A stretch of DNA of 64,000 nucleotides from contig JAFGER010000017.1 in NCBI GenBank assembly GCA_016931495.1, positions 835 to 64,834 on the forward strand, in the 5' to 3' direction. Both the position numbers and the translations under genes were made by a program. Positions 30,057 to 50,902 of this stretch are shown here, piece after piece. The notes beneath the pieces are model-generated. The model saw only the letters and a list, made by a program, of their open reading frames with translations, searched no databases and was not told the DNA's origin. This stretch comes from Chlorobiaceae bacterium (GTDB lineage: Bacteria; Bacteroidota; Chlorobiia; Chlorobiales; Chlorobiaceae). Numbering within the stretch: position 1 is the stretch's first letter; the number at the start of each line of letters is the position of its first letter.

Positions 30057-30158
30057 ATTTTCCGGCATCCCCATTACCTATGGACACGGTGCCAAAAGCT
30101 CTCTTGCGGGACTTGTCCCCGGAGCTTGCCGAAAGGCTTCCCGTGTCCCGTCTGTCCC
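30057..30158 (+). ncRNA. SAM-Chlorobi RNA motif
   Basis: GGACACGG/CCGTGTCC closing stem, GCTC/GAGC, GGGAC-TT-GTCCC and GCC-GAAA-GGC hairpins, directly 5' of metK-ahcY. Matches the context and recalled consensus of the published SAM-Chlorobi motif. Confidence 0.8.
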
Positions 30159-30255: not shown

Positions 30256-31470
30256 ATGTCACATTCAAGGTATTACTTTACCTCGGAATCAGTTTCAGAA
30301 GGCCATCCGGACAAGGTAGCCGACCAGATCTCCGATGCCGTGCTGGATGAGTTCATCAAACAGGACCCCAACTCCCGCGTCGCCTGCGAAACCTTCGTCA
30401 CCACCGGTCAGGTGATCGTCGGCGGCGAAGTCACCACCAAAGGCATCGTCGATGTCCAGACCATCGCCCGCAAAACCATCACCGAGATCGGTTACACCAA
30501 GGGTGAATACATGTTTGACGCAAACTCCTGCGGCATCCTCTCGGCCCTGCACTCGCAGTCGCCCGACATCAACCGCGGCGTCGATCGCAAGGAAGAGATC
30601 CAGGACGAGTTCGACCGCGTCGGCGCCGGCGACCAGGGCATGATGTTCGGCTACGCCTGCACCGAAACCCCGGAGCTGATGCCTGCCGCCATCCAGTTCG
30701 CGCAGGAGCTCGTCAGGAAGCTTGCCGAAATCCGCAAGGAGGGCAAGATCATGACCTACCTCCGTCCCGACGCCAAGAGCCAGGTGACGCTCGAGTACGA
30801 CGAAAACGACAAGGTGCTCCGCGTTGACGCCGTGGTCGTCTCGACGCAGCACGATCCCGAACCGGCTGGCATGAGCGAAGCCGATTTCCAGAACGTCATC
30901 AAGAACGACATCATCGAGAACGTCGTCAGGAAGGTTATCCCTGCCGAGCTGATCGACGCGAACACCAAGTTCCACATCAACCCGACCGGCCGTTTTGAAA
31001 TCGGCGGTCCTCATGGCGACACCGGTCTGACCGGCCGCAAGATCATCGTTGACACCTACGGCGGCGCAGCTCCGCACGGCGGTGGCGCGTTCTCCGGCAA
31101 AGACCCGTCGAAGGTTGACCGCAGCGCGGCTTACGCAGCCCGCCACGTCGCCAAGAACATCGTGGCTGCCGGCCTGGCCGACAAGTGCACCGTGCAGGTC
31201 TCCTACGCCATCGGCGTGGCCCGTCCGGTCTCGATCTACATCAACACCCACGGCACCGGCAAGCACGGCCTGTCCGACGCGCAGATCCAGGAGAAAGCCG
31301 AAGCGATCTTCGATCTCCGCCCGCTGGCCATCATCCGCCGCTTCAACCTCGACCGCCCGCACGGCTGGTGCTACCGCGACACGGCAGCCTATGGCCACTT
31401 CGGTCGCGACATCTTCCCGTGGGAAAAAACCGAAAAGGTTGACGAGCTGAAAGCCGCGCTCAACCTCTGA
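30256..31470 (+). CDS. metK: S-adenosylmethionine synthetase
   Basis: [35 protein letters not shown]. Confidence 0.98.
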
Positions 31471-47411: not shown

Positions 47412-47601
47412 CGGAACGATTCAGAAAACAAACGGTTGAGGAAGCTGCCTTGAAGTATAAGCACTCCGCCACAAGAATAAAATTGGTCATTCCGGGAAAG
47501 CCGGAAGCGGCAATCCCTCCGGGCCATCCTTCATGCCGAAGGCAAAGAAGCGGTTTTCCATGATTTTTTCCGATCCGCAACTCCGGAAATTTGGAAAATA
47601 A

Positions 47602-47755
47602 TTAACGATTGTTAAATTAATTCCTAATCAGTACCCCGACACCATCAGCTGACCTCAAGCTGCGACAATCAGAAAACCAGCAAGACGAAACAAGTTTTTT
47701 GATAAGATCGAAAAATGTCGGATATTAACAATTGTGATTTATTAACAATCGTTAA
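47602..47755. promoter_or_regulatory. Candidate operator sites TTAAC-N4-GTTAA
   Basis: TTAACGATTGTTAA (47602-47615), its exact reverse complement TTAACAATCGTTAA (47742-47755) and partial TTAACAATTGTGAT (47725), in an AT-rich divergent promoter region. Confidence 0.6.
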
Positions 47756-47814: not shown

Positions 47815-48279
47815 ATGACAGCCAACACCCCCAACGGAATCCCGATGCCCATCATCAACCTGACCAGGTATCTTCTCGTGACAGGCATCATTCTTGCCAT
47901 CGTCCTGCAGCAGCCGCTGATCACCACAGGGCTCTTCTTTCTCATGCTTCCTGCCGTGATCTGGGGCAAAAAGGCCAGCCTGATCTTTTACATCGGATCG
48001 CACCTTTTCAAAAAATGGAACGCGACGGCTCACACCGAAAGCCCGAAACTGACCCGCTTCAACAACTCGATCGCCGTGATTCTGCTTGGCATGGCTCAGG
48101 TCGCCTTCTTTTTCAACGCTGACCTTGCCGGCTATATTTTTTCAGGTATCGTCGCCCTGGCCGCCTTTATCGCAATCTGCGGATTCTGCGTCGGCTGCTT
48201 CCTGTTCTTCCAGTACAACATGCAGAAGCACAAGCTGTTTGGACGCAAAACCTCTCCCCAGTACAACACTGCCGGCTGA
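47815..48279 (+). CDS. DUF4395-like membrane protein
   Basis: PKLTRFNNSIA...LAAFIAICGFCVGCFLF motif. Confidence 0.8.
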   Translation: MTANTPNGIPMPIINLTRYLLVTGIILAIVLQQPLITTGLFFLMLPAVIWGKKASLIFYIGSHLFKKWNATAHTESPKLTRFNNSIAVILLGMAQVAFFFNADLAGYIFSGIVALAAFIAICGFCVGCFLFFQYNMQKHKLFGRKTSPQYNTAG

Positions 48280-48292
48280 GTTTTTCCTGAGC

Positions 48293-48490
48293 GTTACTCC
48301 GGCAACCAGAACAGGCGCAGTTGAGCAAGAACGGGGGTTCTGCTCCTGAATGGAGCGCAGTGAACCACTGGATTCATGATGCCTGCATCAGGCGTGAAAC
48401 AGCGCAAATACCGTTCATTGCCGGAGTAACTGCAGCAACTCCCCCCGGAAGAAACCTGTCAGCCCTCGCGGCTTCAGGTTTCTTCTGTTT
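48293..48490 (+). other. Candidate structured RNA plus terminator-like hairpin
   Basis: 13-bp stem 48293-48305/48418-48430 enclosing a multi-stem junction; hairpin 48448-48485 followed by TGTTT. Confidence 0.5.
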
Positions 48491-48613
48491 ATCCTCCTCG
48501 TCATCGGCCAGCCCGGCCCGAAATTCAACAGCAAGCAGAGAAAAGCCCGTGACTGAAACGGAGATTCTGGTTACCTTTCCCTGAGGATCACGACAACTGT
48601 TGCAACCACGCCC

Positions 48614-49756
48614 ATGCACTTTGAAACCATCGCCATCCACGACGGCAATACGCCGGAACGGTGCGCCGGATCGGTGATGCCGCCGGTTTACCAGACTTCG
48701 ACCTTCGCGCGGCCAAGCCTCGACGAGCGGGGCGAATTCTTCTATTCGCGCATCGGCAACCCCACGCGCTCGGCGCTCGAAACGACCCTCGCGCTGCTTG
48801 AAAATGGCAGGTACGCCACGACCTTCGCCTCGGGCGTGGCGGCGATGATGGCCGCAGTGCAGGTGCTCAGACCGGGCGATCACGTCGTTTCAAGCCTCGA
48901 CGTTTACGGCGGGAGCTACCGGATTTTCGAGCAGCTTCTGCGTCCGTGGGGCGTCGAAACCTCCTACGCGGCGAGCGAGGCGACAGAGAGCTTTCTCGAC
49001 TGCATCCGCCCGGAGACGCACATGATCTGGATCGAATCGCCCTCGAATCCGCTTTTGCAAATCTGCGACATCCGCGCCCTCGCCGAAATCGCCAACGAAC
49101 GCGGCATCGTGCTCGCGGTCGATAACACCTTCGCCAGCCCGTACTTCCAGCGCCCGCTCGACCTCGGCGCGCACCTCGTCGTGCACTCGACCACCAAGTA
49201 CCTCGGCGGCCACAGCGACGTGATCGGCGGCGCGGTCGTCGCGTCGGACGACGACCTGCACCTCGCCGTCCGCAACTACCAGGGCGCGGCGGGCGCGATT
49301 CCCGGCCCGTGGGATTGCTGGCTGATTTCGCGTGGCATCAAAACGCTGAAAATCCGCATGGAGGAGCACCAGAAAAACGCGCTGCATCTGGCGCGAGCGC
49401 TTGAAGCGCATCCGGCGGTGAGCCGCGTCATCTACCCCGGCCTGCCGTCGCATCCGCAGCACGAGCTGGCCAAGAGCCAGATGAGCGGCTTCGGCGGCAT
49501 GGTCACGATTGCGCTGAAAGGCGGGCTTCCGGCAGTTCGGAAGATGATCGGCACATTGAAACTCTTCGTTATTGCCGACAGCCTCGGCGGCGTGGAGTCG
49601 CTCGTCGCCTCGCCCGCGCGCATGACCTTCGGCCCGCTGAGTCAGGCGGAGCGCGACCGACGCGCCTGCACCGACGACCTGGTGCGGCTCTCGGTCGGCC
49701 TCGAAAACGCGGAAGACCTCGAACAGGATCTCCTGCAAGCTCTTGCAACCATCTGA
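48614..49756 (+). CDS. metB: PLP-dependent trans-sulfuration enzyme (cystathionine gamma-synthase/beta-lyase family)
   Basis: PPVYQTSTF, YSRIGNPTR, ESPSNP, VDNTFASP, HSTTKYLGGHSD, SLGGVESL; MetB versus MetC not resolved. Confidence 0.8.
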   Translation: MHFETIAIHDGNTPERCAGSVMPPVYQTSTFARPSLDERGEFFYSRIGNPTRSALETTLALLENGRYATTFASGVAAMMAAVQVLRPGDHVVSSLDVYGGSYRIFEQLLRPWGVETSYAASEATESFLDCIRPETHMIWIESPSNPLLQICDIRALAEIANERGIVLAVDNTFASPYFQRPLDLGAHLVVHSTTKYLGGHSDVIGGAVVASDDDLHLAVRNYQGAAGAIPGPWDCWLISRGIKTLKIRMEEHQKNALHLARALEAHPAVSRVIYPGLPSHPQHELAKSQMSGFGGMVTIALKGGLPAVRKMIGTLKLFVIADSLGGVESLVASPARMTFGPLSQAERDRRACTDDLVRLSVGLENAEDLEQDLLQALATI

Positions 49757-49765
49757 TTTACACGC

Positions 49766-50698
49766 ATGGCTATCATCCCGAATATCACGAGCACCATCGG
49801 ACGCACACCGCTGGTGCGGCTCAACAAGCTCGCCGAGGGCCTCGAAGCCGACATTCTGCTCAAACTCGAATACTTCAACCCGCTTGGCAGCGTCAAGGAT
49901 CGCATCGGGCGAGCGATGATCGAGGCCGCCGAAGCCGAGGGAAAGATCGACGCCCGGACGCTCATCGTCGAGCCGACCAGCGGCAACACCGGCATCGCGC
50001 TCGCCTTCGTCTGCGCCCAGCGCGGCTACCGGCTGCTGCTCACGATGCCCGAAACCATGAGCGTCGAGCGGCGCAAACTGCTGCGCTACCTCGGCGCGGA
50101 GCTGGTGCTCACCCCCGGCGCACAGGGGATGAGGGGGGCGATAGAAGAGGCGGCGCGGATCGTCGAGGCCGAAAAGAACAGCTTCAACCCCGGCCAGTTC
50201 AGTAATCCGGCCAACCCCCGCATTCACCAGGCGACCACCGGCCCCGAAATCTGGAACGACACCGAGGGGCGGGTTGACATGCTCGTGGCGGGCGTCGGCA
50301 CGGGCGGCACCATCACCGGAACCTCGCGCTTTATCAAGGCGCTGAAACCCGGCTTCAAAAGCATCGCGGTCGAGCCGAAAGATTCGCCGGTGCTCTCCGG
50401 CGGCCAGCCGGGGCCACACAAAATCCAGGGGATCGGCGCAGGCTTCGTGCCCGAAGCGCTCGACGTGTCGCTGCTCGACGAGGTGGTGACGGTGAGCAAC
50501 GACGACGCCATTTCGACCGCGCGAGCGCTCGCCGCAAGCGAAGGCATCCTCTGTGGCATCTCGTCGGGCGCGGCGGTTCACGCGGCTATCGAAGTGGCCA
50601 GGCGCTCCTCGTCAGCAGGCAAAACCATCGTAGCCATCATCCCCAGCACCGGCGAGCGCTACCTCAGCACCGCGCTCTTCGAAGGCATCGAGGCGTAA
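49766..50698 (+). CDS. cysK: Cysteine synthase A
   Basis: [43 protein letters not shown]. Confidence 0.96.
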
Positions 50699-50700
50699 AA

Positions 50701-50792
50701 TGAATAATTGATAATGGATAGTTCAGGCGCGGTGATTTTCCGCGCCTTCCATTCCTGTCCACCTCGTCCACGCAGTCCACTTCGTCCACTTC
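50701..50792 (+). repeat. Composite 7-mer repeat + hairpin + GTCCACnnn array (second copy of module)
   Basis: TGAATAA|TTGATAA|TGGATAG, AGGCGCGG/CCGCGCCT hairpin at 50725-50747, GTCCAC at 50757, 50766, 50775, 50784. Confidence 0.88.
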
Positions 50793-50902
50793 TTCAAACT
50801 CCACCGCCCCACCGTTTCAACACCACCGGGGAACCTCTCTCTTTGCCGTCTTGTTTCTTTGATTATCTTTAAGTTTTTTCAGGATTTTCTTCGACGGCTG
50901 CC

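Follow-up and report, generated by a model that had tools for sequence, protein, structure and literature searches.

Introduction

In enterobacteria, small RNAs such as CpxQ, SroC, and DapZ are embedded in, or derived from, the 3'UTR of an mRNA. Small RNAs and 3'UTR elements are usually laid out as a structured body with a constitutive terminator behind it. EAR and put are processive antiterminator RNAs. In the multi-stem TPP riboswitch, one arm has a UGAU...GCGU internal loop, and the SAM-Chlorobi RNA (RF01724) is a Chlorobi-specific structured RNA adjoining genes of sulfur amino-acid metabolism. To our knowledge, very few regulatory RNAs are known in green sulfur bacteria.

The transcriptome of Chlorobaculum tepidum has been mapped by dRNA-seq, which gave 2100 internal transcription start sites and the RpoD -7 consensus TA[ATC][ATC][AT]T (bioRxiv 10.1101/172254). 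A CRP-like motif (CLM, PrfA-like WTAACAWWTGTTAA) has been published for Chlorobaculum and is associated with psrABC and cydAB in C. tepidum (bioRxiv 10.1101/172254).

The locus described here lies in a 64,000-nt stretch of a Chlorobiaceae metagenome-assembled genome (contig JAFGER010000017.1), hereafter the window. A structured element of approximately 140 nt was noticed there between a gene for a DUF4395 membrane protein and metB-cysK-thiSGHF. Like CpxQ, SroC, and DapZ, the element occupies the coding strand directly 3' of a stop codon. As with them, its structured body is conserved, it is predicted to share the intrinsic terminator of the mRNA, and no promoter is obvious for it alone. In sequence and structure, however, it is not homologous to them, and it is longer and closed by an unusually long perfect stem. 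It resembles EAR and put as a structured RNA between genes, ahead of intrinsic terminators and free of competing pairings, but again there is no homology. The likeness to the TPP riboswitch is confined to the multi-stem layout and the UGAU and GCGU in one arm; the UGAGA motif is absent, as was first noted and is confirmed by direct reading, the arm is not conserved in the C. parvum clade, and the thi genes stand behind a separate spacer. Both the element and the SAM-Chlorobi RNA adjoin sulfur amino-acid genes, but the element does not match RF01724 at E <= 10, and it sits upstream of a promoter-like box of metB, whereas the SAM-Chlorobi RNA sits just 3' of a promoter-like sequence and 5' of an ATG. 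We tentatively prefer to read the element as a structured 3'UTR module of the DUF4395 mRNA and possibly the source of a small RNA, a reading that we hold to be a serious possibility.

Results

Structure of the element

The features of the locus are collected in Table 1. The outer stem, the inner stem, the two arms, and the downstream hairpin of the original prediction were all found by direct reading where it had placed them. The outer stem P1 consists of perfect 13-bp inverted repeats approximately 112 nt apart. Within the two-part hairpin P2, P2a is GGTTC/GAACC and P2b is GCTCC/GGAGC, with the loop TGAAT and an internal loop of T on one side and GCAGT on the other. The plus strand of 48285-48495 reached a minimum free energy of -89.6 kcal/mol, compared to -64.9 +/- 4.6 kcal/mol for 200 dinucleotide shuffles, none of which folded equally well (0/200; z = -5.4). 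The minus strand of the region gave a z of -3.6. With the covariance model R1, the element of the window scored 135.8 bits, and those of the two related genomes G017 and G068 scored 189-190 bits.

A coding function of the element was rejected: the indels among its homologues are not multiples of three, and the single short open reading frame is not conserved. A leader peptide was rejected as well, since the 17-codon reading frame that starts with ATGATG in the window is broken by stop codons in G017.

Table 1. Positions of the element and of its flanking features in the window
Feature	Position	Strand	Basis or remark
Putative DUF4395 control region	47591..47754	+	sequence and pattern search
TTG-N19-TAAATT promoter-like site	47591-47618	+	overlapped by palindrome TAACGATTGTTA at 47603-47614
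DUF4395 membrane-protein gene	47815..48279	+	Pfam PF14340, E 6.6e-23
Whole structured domain closed by outer stem P1	48293..48430	+	MFE and centroid folds; covariance model R1
P1 5' strand, GTTACTCCGGCAA	48293..48305	+	direct sequence reading
Inner stem, GAACGG / CCGTTC	48329-48334 / 48411-48416	+	direct sequence reading
P2, two-part hairpin	48336..48366	+	GGTTC-T-GCTCC-TGAAT-GGAGC-GCAGT-GAACC
Second arm, TTCA-TGAT-GCCTG-CAT-CAGGC-GT-GAA	48373..48398	+	seen in this genome only
Conserved segment ATACCGTTC	48408..48416	+	adjoins P1 3' strand
P1 3' strand, TTGCCGGAGTAAC	48418..48430	+	perfect complement of P1 5' strand
Strong terminator-like hairpin, 12-bp stem and inner 4-bp stem	48447..48493 (stems 48447-48486)	+	fold
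metB promoter-like region, GTGACT 48549-48554, 17 nt, TACCTT 48572-48577	48549..48577	+	sequence
Genus-wide box, in the window ATTCTGGTTACCTT	48564-48577	+
metB	48614-49756	+	Pfam Cys_Met_Meta_PP, E 3.8e-138
cysK	49766-50698	+	Pfam PALP, E 1.6e-77

Distribution and synteny

The first three copies were used to build a covariance model, with which 122 genomes of the family and 138 genomes of the class (Chlorobia) were searched. The element was found in 3 of the 122 and in 3 of the 138, namely the genome of the window (G000), the complete genome G017, and G068, the latter two being of C. parvum type. A pattern scan of metagenomes added two further copies, both parvum-like, and the homologues thus number five in two lineages. 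A scan of a genome collection returned a C. parvum metagenome-assembled genome alone, together with chance matches in other phyla; as this C. parvum genome carries a homologue, the genus was taken to be Chlorobaculum. Weak matches of the covariance model in G051, G108, G123, and L011 were rejected as spurious, since they lie in unrelated contexts (BKACE, AcrB; radical-SAM and PEP-utilising genes). The original prediction had held that a lack of conservation or covariation in other Chlorobi would speak against it; conservation is present, but in the C. parvum clade only.

The gene order in all five homologues is DUF4395, the element, a hairpin or terminator, and metB. The element starts 14 nt 3' of the DUF4395 stop codon on the same strand, and the DUF4395 protein is 91% and 88% identical to its orthologues in G017 and G068. 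Elsewhere in Chlorobaculum, DUF4395 and metB are 2.4-7.8 kb apart, with typically a response-regulator gene, a divergent tRNA-Cys, and other genes in the interval, or a metY-like paralogue lies 3' of DUF4395. The element was not found in the separated DUF4395 and metB regions of these other Chlorobaculum genomes, upstream of metB in 22 other genus genomes, or beside DUF4395 homologues at 76% identity in Logan contigs. It is thus confined to loci at which DUF4395 and metB are direct neighbors.

The perfect inverted repeats at the two ends of the element are also what a MITE or another small mobile element with 13-bp terminal inverted repeats would have, as the original prediction had allowed. 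That option is refuted: a search for extra copies found one copy in the 2.25-Mb genome and one syntenic copy in each relative, and no direct repeats flank the element as a target-site duplication. We give a mobile origin practically no credence.

Conservation and pairing

Between the genome of the window and G017, the identity at four-fold degenerate sites is 54% in DUF4395 and 62% in metB, and that of the whole intergenic region is 53%. The two P1 strands (13 + 13 nt), 25 consecutive bases covering most of P2 (48338-48362), and the 9-nt run of ATACCGTTC are nevertheless identical in the two genomes. Across the five homologues, the P1 5' strand differs at one point only: in the parvum clade, a single T or A is bulged out after GTTACT. 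The conserved segments include the apparently unpaired GAGCAAGAA, TCAGGnnTGAnA, and ATACCGTTC. The partner of CCGTTC differs by lineage, being GAACGG in the window and a local GGAATG in the parvum clade.

A long P2 helix was predicted by RNAalifold for the parvum-clade sequences. At seven pair positions of this helix, one side has changed and the pairing is preserved (G:C to G·U, U:A to U·G); no pair is broken, and one pair is G:C in one sequence and A:U in another. The 3' strand of P2a is GAACC in the window and GGAAUC, GGAGCC, or GAAGCC in the parvum clade, and the stem is kept. Moreover, the plus strand of the parvum-clade P2 region folds 6-7 kcal/mol better than its complement, because the pairing relies on G·U. 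In place of the second arm, the four homologues of the parvum clade have unrelated sequence, and the junctions and inner arms differ between the two lineages. These data suggest that P1 and P2 are a real, selected structure of the plus-strand RNA and that the remainder is lineage-specific. Since there are only two diverged lineages, the covariation is thin, and it is suggestive rather than statistically strong; with five sequences, the helices beyond P1 and P2 cannot be judged.

P1 itself never varies and is therefore uninformative on whether it pairs as RNA or is kept as a DNA palindrome. The element may accordingly be read as devoid of RNA function, either as a rearrangement scar at the DUF4395-metB junction or as 13-bp half-palindromes that are bound by a protein as DNA. 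The lack of covariation in P1 and the about equal folding of the two strands of the whole element would agree with this, as would the restriction of the element to genomes in which the two genes abut, the same genes being kilobases apart in other genus members. Perfect conservation of P1 and P2 next to neutral sites of 54-62% identity is, however, unexpected of a neutral scar, and a bulge in one P1 strand only, together with a P2 pairing that is kept by G·U, fits RNA better than a DNA site. We consider this explanation unlikely.

Comparison with known RNA families

No Rfam 15 family matched the element in the window at the gathering score, and a search of 48200-48700 and of the G017 homologue at E <= 10 gave chance matches only. 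They comprised two minus-strand matches, mir-92 and sR41, and one to iscRS, which scored 26.7 bits where the gathering score is 40 and lies on the strand opposite to the G017 terminator. The TPP riboswitch model (RF00059) did not match the window at the gathering score, nor the element or its G017 homologue at E <= 10. The models for SAM-I, II, III, IV, V, and VI, SAM/SAH, and SAM-Chlorobi did not match at E <= 10. As a positive control, the same scan of the window found a SAM-Chlorobi RNA at 30063-30150 with 78.2 bits; the Rfam method thus works on this genome. This RNA lies 3' of a promoter-like site (TTG-N21-TACATT) and 5' of an ATG at 30257, and the gene that follows is taken to be a candidate metK.

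Integron attC sites have the core order R''(RYYYAAC)...R'(GTTRRRY) and lie next to cassette genes or an integrase. An attC site was rejected, since the element has the order GTTACTC...GAGTAAC, the inverse of that in attC, and since GTTACTC departs from GTTRRRY. A relic of tRNA-Cys was rejected as well; the 10-nt match to the T arm (GAATCTTGCC) is on the wrong strand and is confined to the parvum clade. At G000:C10:17584-17600, a 17-nt run is perfectly complementary to the P1 5' strand (TGGTTGCCGGAGTAACG); it lies in the signal-peptide region of a lipoprotein reading frame and approximately 60 nt inside the coding region. With a BLAST E of 0.12, it was treated as a chance match and rejected as an RNA target.

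A conserved core with covarying stems across many taxa or genes, as in a generic riboswitch, was not found for the element in these comparisons. In agreement with a 3'UTR element, it lies on the coding strand directly 3' of a stop codon, has an intrinsic terminator at its end, and is conserved in sequence and structure beyond neutral expectation.

Flanking genes and their control regions

The gene names metB-cysK-thiSGHF given in the original prediction hold by their Pfam matches (Cys_Met_Meta_PP, PALP, ThiS, ThiG, radical-SAM with BATS for thiH, and ThiF). The 204-nt spacer between cysK and thiS (50699-50902) contains a hairpin, AGGCGCGG...CCGCGCCT, followed by four GTCCACnnn nonamers as a repeat element, and no TPP riboswitch was found before thiS even at E <= 10. 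Since thiSGHF stands behind this separate spacer and lacks a TPP riboswitch, a link of the element to thiamine is unlikely.

DUF4395 always adjoins a gene for a Cys/Met PLP enzyme, which is metB in the window; in seven genus genomes (L073, L075, L076, L082, L084-L086), a metY-like paralogue lies approximately 70-100 nt 3' of DUF4395. This gene arrangement suggests that the DUF4395 membrane protein is functionally linked to sulfur assimilation. In our search, G000, G017, and G068 had one Cys_Met_Meta_PP gene each. The matches to the metY-like paralogue in G005, G014, G047, G035, G029, G044, and G011 contain one in-frame TGA, which may come from an alignment that overruns the end of the gene.

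In 20 of 22 genus genomes, the metB ATG is preceded at 31-40 nt (53 nt in G017) by a box, ATTCTnnTTACCTT. It is conserved whatever precedes it, and most of the genomes that carry it lack the element; in the window, the element and then the terminator both lie upstream of it. The TACCTT of the box agrees with the RpoD -7 consensus of C. tepidum, and in the genome of the window and the parvum clade a GTGACT or GTGACA hexamer stands 17 nt upstream of TACCTT. A conserved TTG at -33 of the box was not found among the Chlorobaculum genomes (L022-L046 and the window). From these sequence features, we infer that the metB box is a promoter.

Upstream of DUF4395, the palindrome TAACRATYGTTA occurs three times (47603-47614, 47726-47737, and 47743-47754) and matches the published CLM, which suggests that DUF4395 is a member of the CLM regulon. 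Elsewhere in this genome, TAACRATYGTTA sites are present at C65:11627, C82:2278, C84:28360, and C26:477 and 541. The palindrome precedes cydAB, NiFe-hydrogenase small-subunit, and SQR/FCC-like genes, as named by N-terminal sequence only; the last is a TAT-signal gene that resembles sulfide:quinone reductase or flavocytochrome c.

In 12 other genus genomes (L026, L028-L030, L035, L036, L038-L040, L042, L043, and L046), a CLM-type site, TTTGGAAA-N13-GTAACAATCGTTAA, lies 40-250 nt upstream of the metB box. No CLM-type site was found between DUF4395 and metB in the genome of the window and the parvum clade, and this leaves room for a coupling of the metB and DUF4395 transcripts. A terminator-like hairpin lies between the CLM-type site and the metB box in G032, G058, and G038, and possibly in G056 and G060; the region could be an undescribed short leader or small RNA in those genomes. 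A tRNA-Cys(GCA) is divergently placed upstream of metB-cysK in at least 9 of 22 genus genomes (L023, L025, L036, L038-L040, L043, L045, and L046). It is accompanied by a conserved hairpin motif, AAATACCGTAAAyrCGGTA, and both are absent here in this genome and the parvum clade.

A conserved promoter-like site was not found upstream of the element; the TTG.../TA... candidates lie in coding sequence and are not conserved in G017. This bears on the possibility that the element is a separate gene for a small RNA, transcribed from a promoter of its own within the coding end of DUF4395 and terminated at the downstream hairpin. The layout of a structured body and then a terminator would suit such a gene, and C. 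tepidum, which itself lacks the element, has a great many internal transcription start sites. Within approximately 60 nt upstream of P1, however, nothing fits TTG-N17-23-TA[ATC][ATC][AT]T, and the nearest candidates, TTTGGA...TACAAC, become TTCGGC...TTCAAC in G017. An independent gene is thus quite improbable in our estimation.

The downstream hairpin

The hairpin that follows the element ends approximately 125 nt before the metB ATG and has directly 3' of it a weak U-tract, GUUUAUC (GTTTATC in DNA). It was not called by a simple terminator scan of the window, because its loop exceeds 8 nt. In G017, its homologue is the middle hairpin, which has no U-tract, and a separate 12-14-bp hairpin with seven U's is located further downstream. 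As judged from these features, the C. parvum clade has a strong terminator and this genome a weak one, whose weak U-tract makes read-through into metB possible.

In constrained folding, the terminator hairpin was unchanged when the P1 5' strand was barred from pairing, both in the window and in G017, and no alternative pairing of the terminator/antiterminator kind was found in either. The usual link from an aptamer to its expression platform is therefore missing, and so are the mutually exclusive pairings, coupled to the closing helix, of a generic attenuator. This result bears on the possibility that the element is an intercistronic attenuator or riboswitch-like sensor, in which case the palindrome-controlled promoter would drive DUF4395 and metB-cysK as one transcript, and the sensing of a ligand or protein by the element would set the read-through of the terminator. 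The place of the element between a gene for a sulfur-linked membrane protein and metB, with a terminator 3' of it, is in favor of such a sensor, and so are its conserved, apparently unpaired stretches. Furthermore, read-through could keep metB under regulation in a clade that lacks the CLM palindrome before metB, and several other genus members also have a terminator between the palindrome site and the metB box. Yet, besides the missing alternative pairing in both lineages, the sensor is opposed by the absence of an Rfam match, the restriction to one locus in each of 3 among 138 Chlorobia genomes, the junctions and arms that differ between the lineages, and the promoter-like box between the terminator and metB; in G017, the terminator with seven U's would block most read-through. 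We regard a sensor of this kind as unlikely. The more specific proposal of a new intercistronic regulatory RNA, whether a ligand or protein sensor or an antiterminator, that gates read-through from the CLM-controlled DUF4395 promoter into metB-cysK and functionally replaces the CLM site that metB has directly upstream in other Chlorobaculum species seems to us somewhat less likely still.

By analogy to EAR or put, the element could also be a processive antitermination RNA that makes the polymerase resistant to the terminator or terminators between DUF4395 and metB. A structured RNA in a possible operon, directly 5' of one or two terminators and with no alternative pairing, would fit this role. 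The element shows no similarity to EAR or any other Rfam family, however, and the promoter-like box lies 3' of the terminator; we judge an antitermination RNA to be very improbable. The attenuator and antiterminator explanations nevertheless keep some weight, because read-through from DUF4395 may contribute to metB expression.

Taken together, the TPP-like or sulfur riboswitch for metB-cysK-thiSGHF that the original prediction had proposed finds no support, given the lack of an Rfam match and of an antiterminator, the metB box downstream, the occurrence in 3 of 138 genomes, and the separate thiS spacer. Its small-RNA option survives in part. The element stands as a structured RNA that ends in a terminator, but most likely as the 3'UTR of DUF4395 and not as a metB leader.

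Discussion

We tentatively prefer the 3'UTR module of the DUF4395 mRNA because of the fold of the element, its position, the lack of a conserved promoter-like site in front of it, its synteny, the selection on it, its pairing, the P1-independent terminator, and the separate control of metB. From the same features, we infer that the element is transcribed, that it has a role as a 3'UTR, and that it may have small-RNA activity. Transcription would probably start at the palindrome-controlled promoter upstream of DUF4395, on the plus strand. The transcript would run past the stop codon through the P1-closed domain (P1 and P2), the second hairpin, and the intrinsic terminator. As a module at the 3' end, the domain may serve to protect the DUF4395 transcript or to process it, and P1, as a long perfect duplex, would be a plausible site for cleavage or for blocking an exonuclease. 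The domain may, in addition, give rise to a 3'UTR-derived small RNA by release, of which the conserved P2 region would be the functional part. Under this proposal, metB-cysK would be expressed mainly from its own promoter-like box 3' of the element.

The element is unclassified and clade-restricted, and orphan 3'UTR and intergenic RNA structures form a broad and well-populated class. If the 3'UTR reading is true, the element would be another orphan, clade-specific structured RNA and, on present evidence, not a new riboswitch class. It would aid the annotation of Chlorobaculum genomes and provide a candidate 3'UTR-derived regulator in green sulfur bacteria. The comparison of the locus across the genus is arguably more useful, since it defines a genus-wide core control box of metB and since the genes of sulfur amino-acid metabolism, DUF4395 here and metB in 12 other species, seem to carry the CLM.
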